Source of the DNA: a virus
Lineage: Duplodnaviria > Caudoviricetes
Strand: one strand, 5' to 3'
IMG/VR virus record: IMGVR_UViG_2936514734_000001
Span: 32,001-96,000 of that record
DNA length: 64,000 nucleotides
The position numbers and the translations under genes are program-made. Positions within the stretch are counted from its first letter, which is position 1; every line of letters starts with the position of its first letter. The notes under the pieces were generated by a model. It ran no database searches, had not been told where the DNA came from, and saw only the letters and a list, made by a program, of their open reading frames with translations. Below, one piece after another: positions 35,574 through 54,027 of the stretch.

Positions 35574-35687
35574 AGGATTTTGTTTGACATCTTCTTTTAT
35601 AAGTGCAAAACTGTAGTATATATTGGCTACTACTCATAGATTTTTTCTAGAGTAGGAAAAAGAGCAGACCTTTTGGCTTGCTCTTTT

Positions 35688-36095: not shown

Positions 36096-36410
36096 TTACC
36101 ATTTAGGTCCTTTAGGTAAATCCTCAAGCATCATCATGTGTTTTACTTTAGTCTTAGCATGTTTAACTTCTTTTTCAGCCTTTTCCAGATTGTCAATCTT
36201 TTTAGTAAATGTATCAAAATAGGACCCCATCTCCTGTTGGAAAGCATCCTTCGCGTTACCTGATTTCCACGTAGTTAATTCTTCAACTTTGTTTTTAACA
36301 AGTAACTGTTCGGCTCGCAAATCGGAAATGAGGGAGTCTAACTTGCTACTCAAACGGTCAAGATCATCTAATTCTCTTTTATATTTCTCTAAGTTTTTTT
36401 CATCCATCAT
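36096..36410 (-). CDS. WXG100-like helical partner protein
   Basis: ~100-aa helical hairpin with central WKSG; overlaps lipase gene by 4 nt. Confidence 0.65.
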   Translation of the reverse strand: MMDEKNLEKYKRELDDLDRLSSKLDSLISDLRAEQLLVKNKVEELTTWKSGNAKDAFQQEMGSYFDTFTKKIDNLEKAEKEVKHAKTKVKHMMMLEDLPKGPKW

Positions 36411-37546
36411 TTTAAAACATCAGCCTCCACAAACGATGCCGCTGCAGCATTCAAGTTATTTGCCATTCGAGAGGTATCCTCGGCAAACCAACTACTAAGA
36501 TTATGCGCTTGTCCAATTACATCGTTTACGACACCTTCAGATATTTGAATACCATCCAACATTGTTGCATCTCGTTTAAAGGAAGAACAAAGCTCTTCCA
36601 CCCGTGACACATAGCCTTCCAGTTCACTCGCTAAATTAATTAGATGTTCTGGCATAACATTGATTGTTGCCATTTCTCCAGAAGCATATCTAGGGGACTG
36701 TGCTAAAGACTGACCAGTTAGAATGTTTGTTAGAATAGGGTTGTTTAAATTACCTACACCATCAAATTTGAAGTGTTTCATATTATGATAACTTTCTCCA
36801 GCTAGTGAACCCCAAGCTCTTGAAACAGGGTTGTATCTATTCTTTGAGTTCTCAAGATCAAAGGAAGAACCGATGTAGTATGCGGAACCAATATATCTTT
36901 TATAAGGATTAACAGCTCCAGAACTTATAGAATCTTTAGGGTGAATGTAATTTACGATTTGTTTATCAAACTCACCCTTAACTGCTTTCTCTTTTAGATC
37001 TTTAGGAAGCAAGTTGATAACACTTGGTCCGTTAAACGTAACAGCTTCTACATTATTTTTAGCAGCTGCATAAGATGCAATGGACCCAGCCAAAGAGTGT
37101 CCTGTTAATTTAATATTGTAATCAGGATATTCTTTCTTTACATCTTGAACAAGTTTATCTCCCTGACGAAATTGATTCTTCTGATGGAAATCAACGGACA
37201 ACTTCCCGCTATCATATTCAATGTTTAAACCAAGACGATCAACCTTCTTGCCGCGTACAATATAAGTAGCATCGGTTTTTACGTCCGGCCATGCGCGTCC
37301 TTGTGTAACATTCTCTACTGAGTTGGCTTCAGTACCACGATAAGCAATAACTATATTCTTTTTGTTCTTTAAAACCAAGGCATCAAAACCAGTCTCTGCA
37401 TCATGAACTTTAAACTTTTTACTTTTTATAGTTGTCCATTTTTCATTACCATCTTCATAATGGATAGTATAAGATTTTCTAGGTTTGATATCGTAGGCAA
37501 AGCCACTTAGCTCACGAAACGTTCTATCCCTTACATCTGTAATCAT
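36407..37546 (-). CDS. lipase-family putative T7SS effector with C-terminal WXG-like domain
   Basis: IAYRGT, GHSLAG nucleophile elbow, TFNGP; helical C-terminus ending in FVEAD (FxxxD). Confidence 0.8.
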   Translation of the reverse strand: MITDVRDRTFRELSGFAYDIKPRKSYTIHYEDGNEKWTTIKSKKFKVHDAETGFDALVLKNKKNIVIAYRGTEANSVENVTQGRAWPDVKTDATYIVRGKKVDRLGLNIEYDSGKLSVDFHQKNQFRQGDKLVQDVKKEYPDYNIKLTGHSLAGSIASYAAAKNNVEAVTFNGPSVINLLPKDLKEKAVKGEFDKQIVNYIHPKDSISSGAVNPYKRYIGSAYYIGSSFDLENSKNRYNPVSRAWGSLAGESYHNMKHFKFDGVGNLNNPILTNILTGQSLAQSPRYASGEMATINVMPEHLINLASELEGYVSRVEELCSSFKRDATMLDGIQISEGVVNDVIGQAHNLSSWFAEDTSRMANNLNAAAASFVEADVLK

Positions 37547-37618
37547 AATTGAAGCCTCTCTCCTTATTAGTGTATAATTCTATTATATAAGAATTTCCAA
37601 GAATTTGGAGAGATATGG

Positions 37619-37918
37619 ATGATTAATAAGAAATTGTTTGGCTTTATTTTTATTATTGGAATACTACTTTTAACAGGGTGCGGCAAGGAGGACGACATGG
37701 ATAAGAAAGAGATAGAGAAAACCGCTTCACATGTAGCATCGGAATATATGAAAGTGGAAGAGGATATGGATTTTGTTGTTACTGGTGTAGACTTTTTCGA
37801 TGGTCAAGGAGTAACAACTGTAGCTGTTAATGGACATGAAAAAGGAAAGAAAAAAGAACTAGCAGTTATCATCGATTATGGTGATGATTATAGAGTGCAA
37901 GGGACAGCGGAAAATTAA
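37619..37918 (+). CDS. lipoprotein, probable immunity protein
   Basis: Lipobox LTGC after hydrophobic signal; divergent from lipase. Confidence 0.7.
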   Translation: MINKKLFGFIFIIGILLLTGCGKEDDMDKKEIEKTASHVASEYMKVEEDMDFVVTGVDFFDGQGVTTVAVNGHEKGKKKELAVIIDYGDDYRVQGTAEN

Positions 37919-38092: not shown

Positions 38093-38254
38093 TCATTGTT
38101 TTTTACAATTATCGCAAGTTACAGGTATGATCTTTCCCGTACTTGTCATCATCGTACCGCTATTATTGTCTAATATAGATAAAGAGGTAATCACTCCGCT
38201 GATATTATTATATCTAACTGAGTCTCCAATATTTAAACCATACCAATCATTCAT
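38093..38254 (-). CDS. small hypothetical protein (53 aa)
   Basis: MNDWYGLNIGDSVRY...VTCDNCKKQ; GAGGTG SD; TGATG coupling to upstream ORF. Confidence 0.6.
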   Translation of the reverse strand: MNDWYGLNIGDSVRYNNISGVITSLSILDNNSGTMMTSTGKIIPVTCDNCKKQ

Positions 38255-38400
38255 CAATACAGTTCACCTCTTTTAAATTTTTTACGACTATAGGAGCCTT
38301 TTCCTTTTTTATTCTTTACTACACGAGTTGAAGCATTAAAAGCCCATGTACCTCGAGTATTAGTCATCTCACCAATTGTTTTTAATTCTCTTTTACTCAT
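38254..38400 (-). CDS. ArfA-like putative ribosome rescue factor (48 aa, not in ORF track)
   Basis: MSKRELKTIGEMTNTRGTWAFNASTRVVKNKKGKGSYSRKKFKRGELY; matches ArfA core RVEKNKKGKGSY.RK. Confidence 0.65.
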   Translation of the reverse strand: MSKRELKTIGEMTNTRGTWAFNASTRVVKNKKGKGSYSRKKFKRGELY

Positions 38401-38751
38401 ACCCAAACCTTCTTTCTTTACTATTAGTTAAATATCTTATATATAATTTCTGCATATCTATTAATAGAGAGTTTAATTACCTTACTTAATTGCTCACAAA
38501 TAAACCATAATAAGAATAAAGGTAACATTGGTATAATTACTAATATTGTTAGTAAAAGAGTTAACCAAGAAATGCTTGGTACACCCATCAAACTTATCAC
38601 CACCAGTTAAGTAAATAGTAAATTACTTTAGTAAATATGTTTTATCATTTACCTAGTTTGTAGAAAAAGTGCGTATTTGTCGTCACCTAGAGTAATACCT
38701 GTAACTTTAAAATTCGAACAGACTTATAATATTTACTTCATTAAGTTGATA

Positions 38752-39301: not shown

Positions 39302-39833
39302 CTTTGTATATACAATAGAAAATAGAAAAAAGTTAGTTTTACTATCATCCGGTTGCTAACGTTAAGGATTCATCACTACACTAGAAGAAGAATGGTATCG
39401 ATATCCGGATAATAATTTAACTAACTTTTTTCTATCAATCAATAGTCGGCTTTTGCAAAATACAGGTGTGTTGCTTTTTTCACATTTTCATTTTTACCAA
39501 ATAAATGACTTATATACATTTTATAGAATTTTATTTTGAAATATATGAGTATTATGGGGCAAGGGATAGTACCACTATCATTTAGTTGCGTAACAGAAGA
39601 ACAAGCTTACAGCTACAGGGTTAATTGTGCCACTAAATTTAAGATCGACTATCCGTTGCCTTGGACCTTACATAATACCAGAAGTACGGTGAAACACCGT
39701 TGAATTCCACCGCATTTTTATTATTACTAATTAACTGGATATATATTCATCTTTTTCTTACAGAATAGTCCAATACATGGTAAAATCAGGTTAGATACAA
39801 ACAGAAAAATTGAATATAGGAGAGTGGCCGGGG

Positions 39834-40586
39834 ATGAGCTTAAGCATTAATGAGATAATAAAAAACAAAAGAATTTTTGAAATAGACGACGATTGCAATT
39901 ACTTCATCTTAGACGAGGACAAGATCAAAAAATGCATGTATTTTGACTACGTTATTGCTATAAAACATGGCGATTTACCTTACCCTAAAAAGTGGTTAAG
40001 GTTCTTTGATGTCGAACATCCCATAAAGGGACAGGTAATACCTATTGAAGAATACAATAGCGATGACTATGAATATGTTTTTATGCCGTACTTTAAATTT
40101 CCTGATGAACTCAAAAAGCCGCTTGAAGAATTAGGATATACTATAGATAAGGATTATAAAGCTGAAAATTTTTTAATTGAACTAGATAAAATTCCAGAAC
40201 AACTTCTACCTGTTGTTAAGAATATGATCATTGAGAATCAAGAACATAGTAGTGGACCAGAACAAAACGACTTTTATGTTTATGAGAAAGACGGTGAATT
40301 AGTTTATTTTTTAGTGGGCAAAGAGGAGGGTTTTGTTAATACTATTACCGATGAAGTAACAACTAAATTCCAAGATATAAAAACTTTAGAGGCATATGAA
40401 ACTCCATCTAAAGATACTTATTTATTTAAAACTAAAGACCCGCTTAGCAGCTATAGTTCTGAACGTTGGTTCGTATATCTAACTGCAGATCCAAATTTTC
40501 CGCGCCTTAAAGAAGTGGATGAAGTAGCAGACATGTTACCATATACATCTTTTAAAGCAACTGAACCAAAAGTTGAAGTTAAATAA
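39834..40586 (+). CDS. hypothetical acidic protein
   Basis: AGGAG SD; followed by GCAGACAG...CTGTCTGT terminator. Confidence 0.65.
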   Translation: MSLSINEIIKNKRIFEIDDDCNYFILDEDKIKKCMYFDYVIAIKHGDLPYPKKWLRFFDVEHPIKGQVIPIEEYNSDDYEYVFMPYFKFPDELKKPLEELGYTIDKDYKAENFLIELDKIPEQLLPVVKNMIIENQEHSSGPEQNDFYVYEKDGELVYFLVGKEEGFVNTITDEVTTKFQDIKTLEAYETPSKDTYLFKTKDPLSSYSSERWFVYLTADPNFPRLKEVDEVADMLPYTSFKATEPKVEVK

Positions 40587-40980
40587 AATAGGTGAGAATT
40601 ATTTAGCAGACAGGTTAAACTGTCTGTTTTATTTTTCTTTTACATCTCGATATAATAAGTTGTTTTTTAGATATGAAGACATAGCAAAAGACGGCCGAAG
40701 CCGCCTTATACCATAAGTTTTATCTTATCTAAAACAAAACTAATAATGTAGAACCTATTAACAAGAGAAAATCTTTTTTCTATATATATATGGTGTTAAT
40801 TTACCATGAAAGTTCTATTTTGTCAATTTTTTTATTCTGTCTCAATAGGATAAGTATTCTTAAATAAATGAGATATAAAAAAGAGCGACCGAAGTCGCCC
40901 AAACGATTTTATTCTACCTATAAACTTAATGCACTCCTATTTTATTGTAGCATAAGCACCCCTCTTTCTTAAAATAAATT

Positions 40981-41008
40981 GGTTCCTATAATATATCTTA
41001 TGTAAACT
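40981..41008 (+). other. dif site (XerC/XerD = CodV/RipX target)
   Basis: GGTTCCTATAA-TATATC-TTATGTAAACT versus B. subtilis dif ACTTCCTAGAA-TATATA-TTATGTAAACT (24/28, XerD arm identical). Confidence 0.85.
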
Positions 41009-41076
41009 AGAAAAAGAAATAAGAGAAAAGCTTACCCTTTTTTGAGTAAGCCTACATTATATAAATTCTATAAATT

Positions 41077-42240
41077 TTAATGTTTTACAACAGTTACATA
41101 AGTAAGTTTGCTGACATTATTTGAAGCATCCTTAGCAGTTACATTAATGGTAGTCCCTTTTTTTTGCACAGGGATGTTAACAGAAAATGATCCTTTTGAA
41201 TTTGCTTTTGCGTATCCAATTCTGTTTTTACCTACATTAACAGTTACAGTAGAATTAGCCTCAGCTTTACCAGTTACAACCTTATCATTATCATCTACTT
41301 TATTAACTGTTGGTTTATTAGGTGGAGTAACATCTGACTTTACAACAGTTACATACGTAAGTTTACTCACATTACCCGAACTGTCTTTAGCGGTTACATT
41401 TAGTGTAGTTCCTGCTTTTTGAACAGGAATACTAACCGAGAATGAACCATTTGAATTTGCTTTCGCATATCCAATTCGATTCTTCCCTACATTAACAGTG
41501 ACAGTTGAACCTGCTTCTGCTTTACCAGTTACAACTTTATCGTTATTGTCTACTTTGTTAACAGTAGGTTTATTTGGTGCCACTGTGTCTTTAGCAGCAG
41601 CTTCAAATAAAGTCGAGATTCCATATGCCTCACCAGTTTCACTACTATTTAAATCCATAACAGGTATGTAATATGTACCCGCTTTATTAACTTTATACTC
41701 TTGGACTTCTACTCCATCATCATATTCAGAACCTAAGTACTCTATATATCCATGATCTGAGTAATCATATTCAGTTGCCATAAATAATAAATCCATATCG
41801 GTAGGAGTATCTGTTACTCCACCTACTAATAGAGTACCTTTTCCAGATACGTATACCTTATAAAAATCTATATCGAAAGTATCATTAAATTGTCCAAATG
41901 TCATTCTATCATTTAGGAGTGTATCTGCTATTTTGAAATCATCATTAGGCTCACTCTCGTACATTGGCGACCCGCTACTACCACTAATACTAGCTGCATT
42001 AGATTTATTCGCTGAAAACGACTTTGGAGTTTTTAATGAGTTCAAAGTTTTCTCTTTAAAGTCATTCAGTACACTAGGGCTAATAACGTTATGATTGAGC
42101 GGTTTATCATTTTTCAATTGGCTTTCAATTGCTTTCTTTGAAGCCTCGTAATTGTTGCCTTCTGCTTGAGCTGTACCTACTGATAATGAGGAAGCTAGTA
42201 AACCTACGGACAATAATGAGATAATACCCTTTTTCTTCAT
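41077..42240 (-). CDS. secreted protein with PPC-like domain and two Ig-like repeats
   Basis: Signal peptide ending AQA; ESEPND and DIDFYKV motifs; two near-identical D(T/V)..PNKPTVNKVD...TAKD..NVS repeats. Confidence 0.8.
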   Translation of the reverse strand: MKKKGIISLLSVGLLASSLSVGTAQAEGNNYEASKKAIESQLKNDKPLNHNVISPSVLNDFKEKTLNSLKTPKSFSANKSNAASISGSSGSPMYESEPNDDFKIADTLLNDRMTFGQFNDTFDIDFYKVYVSGKGTLLVGGVTDTPTDMDLLFMATEYDYSDHGYIEYLGSEYDDGVEVQEYKVNKAGTYYIPVMDLNSSETGEAYGISTLFEAAAKDTVAPNKPTVNKVDNNDKVVTGKAEAGSTVTVNVGKNRIGYAKANSNGSFSVSIPVQKAGTTLNVTAKDSSGNVSKLTYVTVVKSDVTPPNKPTVNKVDDNDKVVTGKAEANSTVTVNVGKNRIGYAKANSKGSFSVNIPVQKKGTTINVTAKDASNNVSKLTYVTVVKH

Positions 42241-42382
42241 CGAATCTCTCCCCTTAGTTATATGTAACTATCCACTTGCTATGACTATGATACTACTAAA
42301 ATTCCAGCAGAACCACATATTCTCATATTCAAATTTCGACAAAAAAAAGAGCAGCTTAACGCTACTCTTCTTGTGTACACGA

Positions 42383-43213
42383 TTAAGGCATCGGTATAGC
42401 CTGAACCGCCTCTATAAATTGTGGTATAGTAGTTGCTAATGCTGTACCAGCACCAGCTAATCCTGTCACATTAGTTAATGCAGTTGTTGCTCTTCTAATT
42501 AATGAAGGCTTTACTTCCTCACCATTTTCAACTTTTTTAGCTATTTCCTCTACATGATCAATAGCATCTTCTTTCAGCTCTGCATTATCAATATTAGAAT
42601 CTTTTAAAAGCTGAATAAGTTCTTTTGCAATTGATTGTATACCTTCACCTTCATGATTATTATTAGTTTGATTTAATGTAGTATCCCCATATACATCTCC
42701 TTCGTTAGACAGAAAGTTTCCTACAGAAGAATTATTGAATACGTATTTTGCATTTTGTTTTCCTTCAATACCCATTTTTATCGCTTTCTCCTCTAAATAA
42801 GACGTAATATGATCAACTAGTAGATTAACTACTTCTCTATTGAAATTTTTAATCATGTTAACTATCTTTCTGCCCTCACGATATGGAAAAGCAAAATCAT
42901 AATACGACAGATTATTCTCTGTAATATGCTTAAGAAGTTGATAGATATAACTAACTTCTTCATTTTCATCAAATGGAAGATCAAATTTATCTTCGCCATT
43001 TTTTTCTTCAATAATTTTATTAAAGTCATATACTCGCGTGTGGTTCTTTTCAATAAAATCTTTAATGATTGGTTCTTTATCTATTGTGCTAATAAATCTT
43101 TTGGTTAGTCGCAGCGCCTCGTCCATATCAGTTGCTCTGAGCATTTGACCAAAAGCTTTTCTAAAGTTTTTAGATAAAATTTTAAAATCTTCATATGACA
43201 TAACTATTTCCAT
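42383..43213 (-). CDS. hypothetical protein, candidate defence gene
   Basis: 276 aa; Asn-rich linker and C-terminal helical bundle; abuts the upstream Zn-finger gene. Confidence 0.6.
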   Translation of the reverse strand: MEIVMSYEDFKILSKNFRKAFGQMLRATDMDEALRLTKRFISTIDKEPIIKDFIEKNHTRVYDFNKIIEEKNGEDKFDLPFDENEEVSYIYQLLKHITENNLSYYDFAFPYREGRKIVNMIKNFNREVVNLLVDHITSYLEEKAIKMGIEGKQNAKYVFNNSSVGNFLSNEGDVYGDTTLNQTNNNHEGEGIQSIAKELIQLLKDSNIDNAELKEDAIDHVEEIAKKVENGEEVKPSLIRRATTALTNVTGLAGAGTALATTIPQFIEAVQAIPMP

Positions 43214-43672
43214 TTAATTCACCCCACAATACGGACAGTATGGGCCCGCACTCGCCTTTATTAGAGTAGAAACCTTTGCTTTCTTTAAGCAGCATTGAAA
43301 CTCTACAATATCGTAGTCATTTTGCTCAAAAAGCGGTTGAGGACTGATGCTGGGCTTTAAAGGCTTTCCTGGTTTGAATGTGACATTTTTATTTCCCTTA
43401 AAGATTTTACCAATATCCTTAACGGCTTCATTAAGTAAGTCTATTGCATATTGTTCTGCTTCTGCGTTTGCATTCTCAATAATATCTTCAGTAAGGAACT
43501 CAGAAGGTTCTTGTGGAATTCCACAAGAAGGGCAGAAAATTTGCAGCACATGGTCTTCCTCCACGTCTCCTGGTACAAGCTTAAAACCCTCACTACACAG
43601 GCTACACTCGAAAGAAGAAAAACCATCGTGGTCAGTTTGCTTAGTTATTTCTATTCTTTTTTCCACTAACAT
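43214..43672 (-). CDS. zinc-ribbon protein
   Basis: CSLC..CPSC and CC..CPYC motifs; GAGGAG SD. Confidence 0.7.
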   Translation of the reverse strand: MLVEKRIEITKQTDHDGFSSFECSLCSEGFKLVPGDVEEDHVLQIFCPSCGIPQEPSEFLTEDIIENANAEAEQYAIDLLNEAVKDIGKIFKGNKNVTFKPGKPLKPSISPQPLFEQNDYDIVEFQCCLKKAKVSTLIKASAGPYCPYCGVN

Positions 43673-43842
43673 TTCTCCTCTCTTATACATCAAATATAGA
43701 TTTGCAAAAAGATGCTATATTTCTACAACCTTGGATATATTTACTTATAATTATAGCAAAAAAAAAGAGAGTAGTCGCGACGAACCACTCAAAAACTACC
43801 GATTAGATTAACTTGAGAAATTAATGTGTAGAATAGTATGAA

Positions 43843-43870
43843 CCACATTATGTCATATCTTATGTAAACT
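43843..43870 (+). other. dif-like site (intact XerD arm, degenerate XerC arm)
   Basis: CCACATTATGT-CATATC-TTATGTAAACT; downstream flank also repeats that of the 40981 site. Confidence 0.65.
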
Positions 43871-43895
43871 AGAAAAGGAAATAAAGGAAACCTAC

Positions 43896-44144
43896 TCATT
43901 TCTGATTTAGGATTTCTAAGTGTTTTTGATAGTCTAGATAATATTCTAATGTTCTTTCATATTCATTTGCTTTATTAGCATACTCTAGGTTAATCTTCTT
44001 TTTAATATCATCATTAATGACTAATTCATCATTGTAAATATTTTTCTTTTTCATGTTATTTAGTCTGCTATGATATTGTTTAGCGGAGTTTTCTCCAATT
44101 TTAGTTTTAGTGTGTACATCTGTTAAGTAAGTTGGAAAATTCAT
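43896..44144 (-). CDS. stand-alone integrase N-terminal (SAM-like core-binding) domain-like protein
   Basis: AGGAGG SD before MNFPTYL; F..YL...ENSAKQY..RL and Y..L.YYLDY pattern. Confidence 0.5.
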   Translation of the reverse strand: MNFPTYLTDVHTKTKIGENSAKQYHSRLNNMKKKNIYNDELVINDDIKKKINLEYANKANEYERTLEYYLDYQKHLEILNQK

Positions 44145-44156
44145 AAGTAACCTCCT

Positions 44157-44184
44157 AGTTAACATAATGTAATTTAAAAAGGAA
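44157..44184 (-). other. inverted dif-like site
   Basis: Minus strand TTCCTTTTTAA-ATTACA-TTATGTTAACT; XerD-type arm intergenic, other arm overlaps a gene end. Confidence 0.5.
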
Positions 44185-44659
44185 ATCTTCCTGGTCCATT
44201 AACTCGCTGAGGTTCAGGTGCGTAAAAGCTACAATAACCGAAGTGGTAACATTTCATTTTATAAAGAATCACTAAAGCTTTTATTGTATTCATTTTGTCT
44301 TGAAGCCCTTTTCCCTCAGCATAAGAAAAAATATGGCTTTCGACTTCCTTGATCTCTGCTTCTAATTTGATTTTTATATTTTCTTGCATTTCCCTATCTT
44401 TTTTTAGGTACTCATACCATTCCTTCTCTGATTCCTCTTTTGGCTCAGGAGGCATTTCTCTTTTGTTCATAATTTCAGGTACACATATATCTTTTGCATT
44501 AGAATAAATCTTTGCTAAGCTTATTTCGATATACCTTTCGCTATCGACACCAAATTCATGAAAATACGAACATATATTGTCTCTATACTCATTAATTTCT
44601 TCTTTTAGTTTCCTTTTAACTGTTTCTACTATCTCTTTATCTGTATCAAAATCAATCAT
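44174..44659 (-). CDS. hypothetical protein
   Basis: GGAGGG SD; ORF track. Confidence 0.65.
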   Translation of the reverse strand: MIDFDTDKEIVETVKRKLKEEINEYRDNICSYFHEFGVDSERYIEISLAKIYSNAKDICVPEIMNKREMPPEPKEESEKEWYEYLKKDREMQENIKIKLEAEIKEVESHIFSYAEGKGLQDKMNTIKALVILYKMKCYHFGYCSFYAPEPQRVNGPGRFPF

Positions 44660-45764: not shown

Positions 45765-45950
45765 TTAACTATTTTTCAGTCCGGGTTGTGGGTAAGCAGT
45801 GTTGATTTCTGCTAAAGTTTTTAATACTTCATCACTAGAAAACTGTAGTCTCTTCATATACTCCTCAGTATATCTACGTCTCGCTGATGAAGGCTTAGAG
45901 GAAATAACTACAACTTTACCATTATCATACCGTTTTTTCTGAACAGTCAT
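45765..45950 (-). CDS. small partner protein of the DUF4062 gene
   Basis: ATGA overlap; GGAGGG SD inside upstream gene; terminator follows. Confidence 0.6.
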   Translation of the reverse strand: MTVQKKRYDNGKVVVISSKPSSARRRYTEEYMKRLQFSSDEVLKTLAEINTAYPQPGLKNS

Positions 45951-47134
45951 GATTGAATCCCTCCTATTAAATCAGCTACAAAGTTTATAAGCAGGATGTT
46001 ATTACTCATTATAGCATATTCCACTTCGTCCTTGTAAGAGTTAGCTTGTAGGTCTGTCCATTTTTTCTCAATTAACGGATAATGAAAACATAATACAAAC
46101 TCTTTGGACTTAATTGTATAGTAAAGCAATTCTTTTGCTTCAGAATAACCTATTTCTCCATTATCACTAGTATAACAATTCACTACATATGAAGTATCAT
46201 CAGACAAATCATACTCTTGAGTTGGTGTTGTTTCACCGCAACAGCCACAAAGCTTCATTTTTCCATTATCTTGTTTGTAAACAGTCATAGCATTACAACT
46301 ACCAATTGTATTTACTTTCTTTTGAGTTCTTGTACCTGGACGTATAAAAATTTCTCCGCCACTTAACTGAACTCTAGCTGTGTTTAAAAACTCTCCCCAG
46401 TCAACTACTTTTCCATTATCTATAAACGATAATAATGAAGTTGTATACTCCTGATACTGTCGCAAGACTTTTGCGGCATCTGCATTTACAGCCATGCTTT
46501 CTTTATGTGGAATCAGCTTGATTCCTTGACCTAAATGATCACTAAAGTAACCATTAATTTTCTGATAAAATTCTGGTGAACGGGATATGATAAGATCCTC
46601 TGTCCAAACTCGTGCACGCTGAACATCAAAAATAAACGCCCACAAAAAAGGATGAAATCTTTTCTCTTTCAACATATCTCTTTGTGCATCACCCAAATTG
46701 TTTTGAATTACTTCCTCAACTATATCCATTGTATAATTAGGTTCGCGATGATTTGTTTCCATATATTCTTTATAGCGTTTGTTTAAAGGTGTCTTAATAT
46801 GCTCGTCATAAACGCGTTTTATTTTTTCGTCAAAGAAAGCGATAACATACTTTTTCTCCTCAATTGCTGTAAAGAATTCTTCATATGTAGGTGTAGTTTT
46901 CGCCTCTTCCCAATACGTTCCAACATAGTTGTTTACAAGCAGGATAAAAATATCACATTCTTTAACCTTCTGTATACAAGTCTCCATTGTGTCATCAGCC
47001 CAAGGGTAAAAATTCTCCTCAAACAACAAAGGCTGATGGCCCGAAGATTCTAAATGTGCTTTTAAATCTTGTCTTAACGGTTTTAGATCGTCATCATATG
47101 CTGAGCTAACAAAAATCTTAGCTGGATTTGGCAT
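45947..47134 (-). CDS. DUF4062 (TIR/NDT-like) domain protein with possible C-terminal GAF-like domain
   Basis: KIFVSS...DL...R, C...V..CDIFILLV...G, T..EF..A motifs. Confidence 0.75.
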   Translation of the reverse strand: MPNPAKIFVSSAYDDDLKPLRQDLKAHLESSGHQPLLFEENFYPWADDTMETCIQKVKECDIFILLVNNYVGTYWEEAKTTPTYEEFFTAIEEKKYVIAFFDEKIKRVYDEHIKTPLNKRYKEYMETNHREPNYTMDIVEEVIQNNLGDAQRDMLKEKRFHPFLWAFIFDVQRARVWTEDLIISRSPEFYQKINGYFSDHLGQGIKLIPHKESMAVNADAAKVLRQYQEYTTSLLSFIDNGKVVDWGEFLNTARVQLSGGEIFIRPGTRTQKKVNTIGSCNAMTVYKQDNGKMKLCGCCGETTPTQEYDLSDDTSYVVNCYTSDNGEIGYSEAKELLYYTIKSKEFVLCFHYPLIEKKWTDLQANSYKDEVEYAIMSNNILLINFVADLIGGIQS

Positions 47135-53640: not shown

Positions 53641-54027
53641 TTATCCAGTTTGTGTATTTCTTTCTGGTGTTTCTACAAGAAAAGATACATTCTCATAAAT
53701 TGTAGAGCCACTTCCAACGGTGCTAGTGCCATGGTTTATATGGCTAATAAGCCCTTCAAACTCTTCACCACTGAAAAATATGAGATGCACTTTGTTTTGC
53801 TTGCTCATATCTATTTCATTAGGAATAATAGCTTGATTAAAGTTTAAATTATACCCTAAGAATGGATGATGATCTCCTATCTTCATTGGCGAACCATCTT
53901 CATGAACAGGATTCCCCATTGTATACATAACAACTGTTCCCTCTGGTCCACCTATTGGACTAACATGACTATCTTGAAACTTGATTTGATGATGATTAAT
54001 CCAACAACTTTTTAAAGCTTTGTTCAT
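53641..54027 (-). CDS. hypothetical protein
   Basis: GGGTGA SD; downstream of rtp. Confidence 0.6.
   Translation of the reverse strand: MNKALKSCWINHHQIKFQDSHVSPIGGPEGTVVMYTMGNPVHEDGSPMKIGDHHPFLGYNLNFNQAIIPNEIDMSKQNKVHLIFFSGEEFEGLISHINHGTSTVGSGSTIYENVSFLVETPERNTQTG

Follow-up and report, generated by a model that had tools for sequence, protein, structure and literature searches.

A putative dif exchange junction with a probable 82-residue passenger gene in a jumbo plasmid-prophage of Priestia

The 64,000-nucleotide stretch analysed here (the window) covers positions 32001-96000 of virus record IMGVR_UViG_2936514734_000001, a genome of 239,374 bp rated complete. This study concerns a gene of 82 amino acids (aa) on the minus strand of the window (43896-44144), which lies between two recombination arms of the XerD type. 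The gene starts with ATG and is preceded by a Shine-Dalgarno (SD) sequence at 44151-44156 on the same strand; an alternative start at 44165 would give 89 aa but has no SD. The downstream arm (43860-43870, plus strand) is an exact match to the B. subtilis type, and the upstream arm (44157-44167, minus strand), which abuts the SD, is an exact match to the B. cereus type, the reference for which was the B. thuringiensis dif as quoted in PMC8116677. The two are inverted, facing the gene from 43860 (plus) and 44167 (minus). Exact XerD arms occurred three times in the 239-kb genome, all within 3.2 kb, against a chance expectation of 1.1 genome-wide and 0.0016 per 350 bp (a post hoc figure). Clustering of the arms by chance is unlikely. 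One-mismatch arms elsewhere in the genome and a weak 16/22 dif-like match at 41049-41076 were left out of this count.

A sequence-only reading had described the inward-facing arms as inverted plasmid dif (pdif) sites. The arms and their orientation were borne out but the identity of the sites as pdif was not, and two complete 28-bp sites do not flank the gene. Bases in the XerC position matched dif at 4 of 11 positions on either side (null median about 3). With a XerC-arm matrix made from 49 Priestia plasmid sites, the downstream site scored -7.8 bits (null P 0.56) and the upstream site (44174-44184) -3.2 bits (null P 0.21), compared to +11.6 for the site at 40981. The latter (40981-41008, plus strand) is a complete dif/pdif site with both arms and a 6-bp spacer, agrees with B. 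subtilis dif at 19/22 positions and lies 5 kb from the GC-skew maximum at window position 35664. The 45 nt from 40978 to 41022 are 95.6% identical to the dif region of the Priestia chromosome.

Sequence around the downstream arm repeats this site. Positions 43855-43890 repeat the sequence at the complete dif (40993-41028) in direct orientation with 92% identity, a relationship absent from the sequence-only reading. On one side of the arm is a hybrid left half (43843-43859, plus strand), in which a dif-type 6-bp spacer (5/6 with 40992-40997) follows six bases from the start of an older XerD arm and no XerC arm is present; relative to a related locus, L001, positions 43848-43859 are a 12-bp insertion that ends at the arm/spacer boundary. 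On the other side is a conserved Priestia junction flank (43871-43916, plus strand), common to P. megaterium plasmid sites, which consists of an A-rich stretch and a terminator-like hairpin (43887-43916) that the last codons of the 82-aa gene overlap. A remnant of the 82-aa gene is not the sole reading of the sequence that follows each XerD arm; the same hairpin follows the arm beside an unrelated 56-aa plasmid gene. Between the intact and the degenerate dif, in direct repeat, lies a block of cargo (41009-43859), an arrangement like that of insertions of integrative mobile elements exploiting Xer (IMEX). There are no replication genes in this block. Loci L009 and L014 have the empty-type arrangement. 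No joint of 41008 to 43860 was present in four contig sets, which cannot show absence. On several IMG/VR contigs (L005 10627, L006 10644, L007 3443, L029 891, L030 12666), dif-like sites had a spacer that differed from that of B. subtilis dif at the last base.

The downstream arm is conserved across the dif-linked relatives of the gene. In the window and in L001-L004, L009-L011 and L014 it was found 35-37 nt beyond the stop codon, and the proteins of these loci form one starred clade (98/97; few columns, with a long branch for P0009). A complete dif adjoins the gene in L009-L011 and L014, with a full XerC side in L009 and L014, and the read-through residues of the stop-less variants P0113 and P0011 match translated dif, which implies the same arrangement for them. 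The XerC side is degenerate in L001-L004, and its content varies among loci: secreted proteins in these four were only 25-37% identical, isolate X13 has a 646-nt insertion and L010 has an HNH gene. Two direct arms enclose a single gene in L004 and L040, and the outer arm belongs to a full dif. The variable XerC side and the hybrid left half are the pattern we would expect from crossovers in the spacer. The hypervariable secreted proteins (about 160 aa, 25-37% identity; L001 8399-8908, L002 686-1162, L003 733-1215, L040 789-1298) have no Pfam match, are encoded behind a conserved promoter region on the XerC side and are candidates for superinfection exclusion factors.

Only the downstream arm travels with the gene. 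The upstream arm, which had been proposed as the second boundary, was absent from all six DNA loci (L001-L004, L009, L014). It adjoins a 161-aa orphan gene (44174-44659, minus strand) for which no usable homologue or fold match was obtained. The slot of this gene is swappable: it holds a 129-aa gene in L001, L003 and L004 and 422 nt in X13, where the arm is replaced together with the neighbouring gene. The breakpoints of the slot lie at two ribosome-binding sites and not at Xer spacers, the downstream breakpoint being the SD of the 82-aa gene. Had Xer crossed over within the spacer, the 82-aa gene would have retained the arm; the arm instead goes with the 161-aa gene. The upstream arm is probably a relic that came with the latter and is less likely a chance match. 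P0001 begins with residues encoded by the upstream arm, and its locus probably has this arm also, as judged on the N-terminal residues only.

The idea of a mobile module, with an inverted pdif site at each end and the XerD arms pointing inward, is very improbable in light of these results and can be regarded as largely refuted. The exact inner arms have the geometry of a D-type dif module, the P0001 locus probably has the upstream arm too, and Priestia plasmids carry pdif sites in both orientations, but neither site has a XerC arm, the upstream arm was missing from every DNA locus, and the upstream swap breaks at a ribosome-binding site on the gene side of the arm. In addition, the 82-aa gene was not found by tblastn on PLSDB plasmids or phage records. 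The gene is most likely a passenger at the junction rather than a two-site mobile module; the sequence-only reading was right on the fold and the connection to Xer and wrong on the module.

The junction recurs outside the phage. Plasmids of P. megaterium rep_cluster_385 carry the same dif, A-rich flank and hairpin beside the 56-aa gene; the cargo on the XerC side differs from plasmid to plasmid. Five of these plasmids contained 53 exact arms compared to 6 in a reversed-pattern control, and 36 of the 52 distinct plasmid sites examined had a XerC-like arm of 7/11 or better (null 2%), with variable spacers. Plasmids W01-W05 of this cluster (L057-L061, L064-L093) had 6-16 exact XerD arms each, in both orientations and most with XerC-like arms and variable spacers, and appear from their sequences to have a Firmicute pdif system. 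A further short palindrome, possibly an accessory-factor site, was seen ≤25 nt past the XerD arm at 30 of 53 plasmid sites (3 mismatches allowed, no control run). The Priestia chromosome has its dif and nearby Big_6 and lipase genes in common with the phage. On sequence grounds, a pdif exchange junction is common to the Priestia jumbo phage, plasmids and chromosome. We found no prior description of Xer-bounded shuffling for Priestia plasmids or Bacillus phage-plasmids, within a literature coverage that is incomplete.

The cargo block of the window encodes a secreted 387-aa Big_6 (Ig-like) protein (41077-42240, minus strand), and an 81-83% nucleotide homologue of this gene is present on the host chromosome, 1.7 kb to the XerD side of dif. 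It also includes the PDC-M14A (Zn-ribbon) and PDC-M14B pair (42383-43693, minus strand), a two-gene candidate defence system (PADLOC E 2e-50 and 4e-84, respectively). Plasmids of the B. cereus group also carry the PDC-M14B gene, with about 64% identity. At 36096-37918, WXG100-like, lipase and lipoprotein genes are 88% identical to a stretch of the Priestia chromosome 3-5 kb from dif (L041). Isolate X13 lacks a 258-aa gene (39810-40586) and has a 1057-nt insertion at 42295-42343; no XerD arm was present at either place.

Alternatively, cargo might be exchanged by homology, through ribosome-binding sites and the 36-60 nt of dif-terminator flank that junctions have in common, in which case Xer would only resolve dimers at the intact dif. 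Past the XerD arm the junctions do have homologous flanks, and nearby swaps use microhomology at ribosome-binding sites or involve no arm. Against this, identity usually ends at the spacer or the XerC arm, the arm/spacer boundary marks the end of the 12-bp insertion, and the Priestia plasmid sites retain both arms with variable spacers. Homology-driven exchange is quite unlikely.

The 82-aa translation contains the pattern F..YL...ENSAKQY..RL...YYLDY, which had been likened to the N-terminal domain of tyrosine recombinases, and, as was also claimed, lacks the catalytic R-K-H-R-H/W-Y domain. Assignment to the core-binding (SAM-like) fold is moderately supported: a four-helix arrangement of this kind was predicted over the whole 82 residues but support from sequence was sub-threshold. 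The 82-aa query had no Phage_int_SAM match, and among 24 family members the best E values, 0.028 and 0.037 in one member each, did not reach the cut-off. Sequence searches of Pfam, PHROGs, PADLOC and PDB with the protein gave nothing significant, Foldseek against PDB gave no match, and hhalign against XerS of pAD3 returned a probability of 1.8%. The family comprises about 50 unannotated sequences without a Pfam assignment, conserved in two helices (S20, Q23, Y24, R27 and Y62, R64, T65). Six clusters of homologues lie in defence or toxin islands with no XerD arm, and the arm-less homologues have McrBC, WYL, PDC-M15A nuclease, MauJ or LXG/SUKH genes as neighbours. Some homologues are fused to a UDG-family protein and others, as judged by structure, to HNH; among longer homologues there were none with a catalytic domain, those found being the UDG fusions. 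Viral, metagenome and GTDB collections yielded no relatives of the 82-aa locus. Because most of the family lies by defence or conflict genes, the most likely role, which we put forward tentatively, is that of a small accessory or regulator of such genes that would bind DNA through the two conserved helices.

It is unlikely that the dif-linked clade modulates Xer, its catalytically empty core-binding domain binding a half-site or RipX/CodV and blocking or licensing recombination at the adjacent dif, for example to stop fusion of the phage-plasmid with the chromosome. One clade does keep the downstream arm, but the same residues are conserved in the arm-less homologues, the six clusters are far from any arm, other Priestia pdif junctions carry the unrelated 56-aa gene at the same place, and some relatives (L063) have a dif with no gene of this type alongside. 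Moreover, crossover geometry alone accounts for the linkage: an exchange within the spacer alters the XerC side but leaves the gene joined to its XerD arm, and no action of the protein on Xer has to be assumed. Similarly doubtful is a stand-alone core-binding clade tied to Priestia pdif junctions that would be a dominant-negative or licensing factor for host XerCD and govern cargo capture by a recombinase-less jumbo plasmid-prophage in a hitherto undescribed Firmicute pdif exchange network. Should the 82-aa protein prove to touch Xer, it would represent a novel type of recombination regulator.

Synteny with pBtic235 and pAD3, and one structural protein 77-81% identical to theirs, identify the phage, as far as sequence can tell, as a pBtic235-like jumbo (large) plasmid-prophage; pBtic235 is a plasmid prophage of about 235 kb (PMC8026635). 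Shared proteins point to Priestia as the host. The genome has 18 tRNA calls and two converging gene halves. No match to PF00589 (the tyrosine recombinase catalytic domain) or to xerS was found in the whole 239-kb genome, and the slot that encodes xerS in pBtic235 and pAD3 is occupied by a 128-aa open reading frame (ORF) unrelated to xerS (53641-54027, minus strand). Phage xerS has apparently been replaced by a host-type dif. A distantly related element, the 212-kb B. licheniformis plasmid NZ_CP035189, has a full dif and only one XerD arm in all, and no tyrosine recombinase was found in it. This contrast between xerS slot and full dif rests on four genomes, too few for a rule. The notion that XerS-positive relatives have no dif-like site was rejected; pBtic235 and pAD3 both carry one degenerate site. 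Each of these single dif-like sites (L095, pBtic235 2163; L096, pAD3 167845) has a XerD-type arm and a shared downstream flank, that of pAD3 is near-symmetric, and they are candidate targets of the phage XerS. Elsewhere in the window, a small ArfA-like ORF (38254-38406) has a syntenic gene annotated arfA in pAD3, and a DUF4062 (TIR-like) protein (45947-47134), with internal segments that vary among relatives, is also encoded near the dif of NZ_CP035189.

Lone XerD arms might also have been kept as XDS-like, XerD-only sites which unload SMC or organise the replicon terminus and would not be scars. The arms have stayed exact next to decaying XerC sides, none is more than about 8.5 kb from the skew switch, unloading by XerD at XDS is established for B. 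subtilis (PMC11894783), and RipX is able to bind either half-site (PMC5357621). However, the arms sit at cargo boundaries, accompanied by dif spacers and a terminator flank that they share, and the related 212-kb element has one arm only. We regard this origin as improbable. The position of the arms at gene-swap junctions favours a recombination origin over SMC-unloading sites. Use as XDS is compatible with the explanation that follows as a secondary use.

It is probable, in our judgement, that the locus is a dif-plus-terminator exchange junction with the 82-aa gene as a passenger on its XerD side. In this view a Priestia jumbo plasmid-prophage, lacking its own recombinase, would depend on XerC/XerD (CodV/RipX) of the host, and the locus would be the dif region where its dimers are resolved. 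The gene is fixed on the XerD side of the junction, and in the simplest relatives it abuts a complete dif. Phage dimers would be resolved at 40981 by host RipX/CodV, which from time to time would also form co-integrates between the phage and pdif sites of the host or of plasmids. With repeated crossovers of this kind, resolution at another site would leave cargo between the XerC arm and the gene, with XerD-arm scars in direct orientation (43860) and one intact dif (40981). The 82-aa product might then be a DNA-binding accessory of defence genes. Xer-bounded gene shuffling is so far known mainly from Acinetobacter plasmids and proteobacterial IMEX; here the host dif region, P. megaterium plasmids and a jumbo plasmid-prophage have one type of junction in common, and defence and surface genes appear to move across it.

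The 82-aa protein shares its four-helix arrangement and a conserved helix, S-x-x-Q-Y-x-x-R-L, with the core-binding domains of tyrosine recombinases (XerD 1a0p, XerA 5hxy, IntI 2a3v; Phage_int_SAM_1/4/5). Unlike them it stands alone without a catalytic domain, falls below Pfam cut-offs and belongs to a family found mostly in defence or toxin islands; it is not full-length as MrpR and SroF are (about 320 aa). The genome resembles pBtic235-like plasmid prophages (PMC8026635) in synteny, structural protein, size (about 235 kb) and converging gene halves. In contrast, pBtic235 and pAD3 have XerS and only a degenerate dif-like site, whereas the present genome has a complete host-type dif and no xerS. 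The XDS sites of B. subtilis (PMC11894783) are likewise XerD arms without XerC arms near a terminus, whereas the arms here belong to a phage and mark cargo junctions, where dif spacers and terminator flanks accompany them.

At this locus, as for IMEX at dif (CTX, TLC, GGI; PMC5357621), an intact and a degenerate site flank the insertion in direct repeat. The cargo here, however, has no replication or packaging genes, its target is the dif of the phage, and the degenerate arm is XerC, while TLC and GGI have a divergent XerD arm. Similar to the pdif/xrs sites and dif modules of Acinetobacter (PMC11705084), 28-bp sites for host XerC/XerD with variable spacers bound accessory genes on extrachromosomal DNA. 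Such cassettes in Acinetobacter move by co-integration and resolution, not by excision (PMC11705084), and exchange by this route fits the present locus. The two systems differ in that the host here is a Firmicute, the replicon is a jumbo plasmid-prophage with one intact dif and direct XerD-only scars, and the 82-aa gene does not lie between two complete inverted sites.
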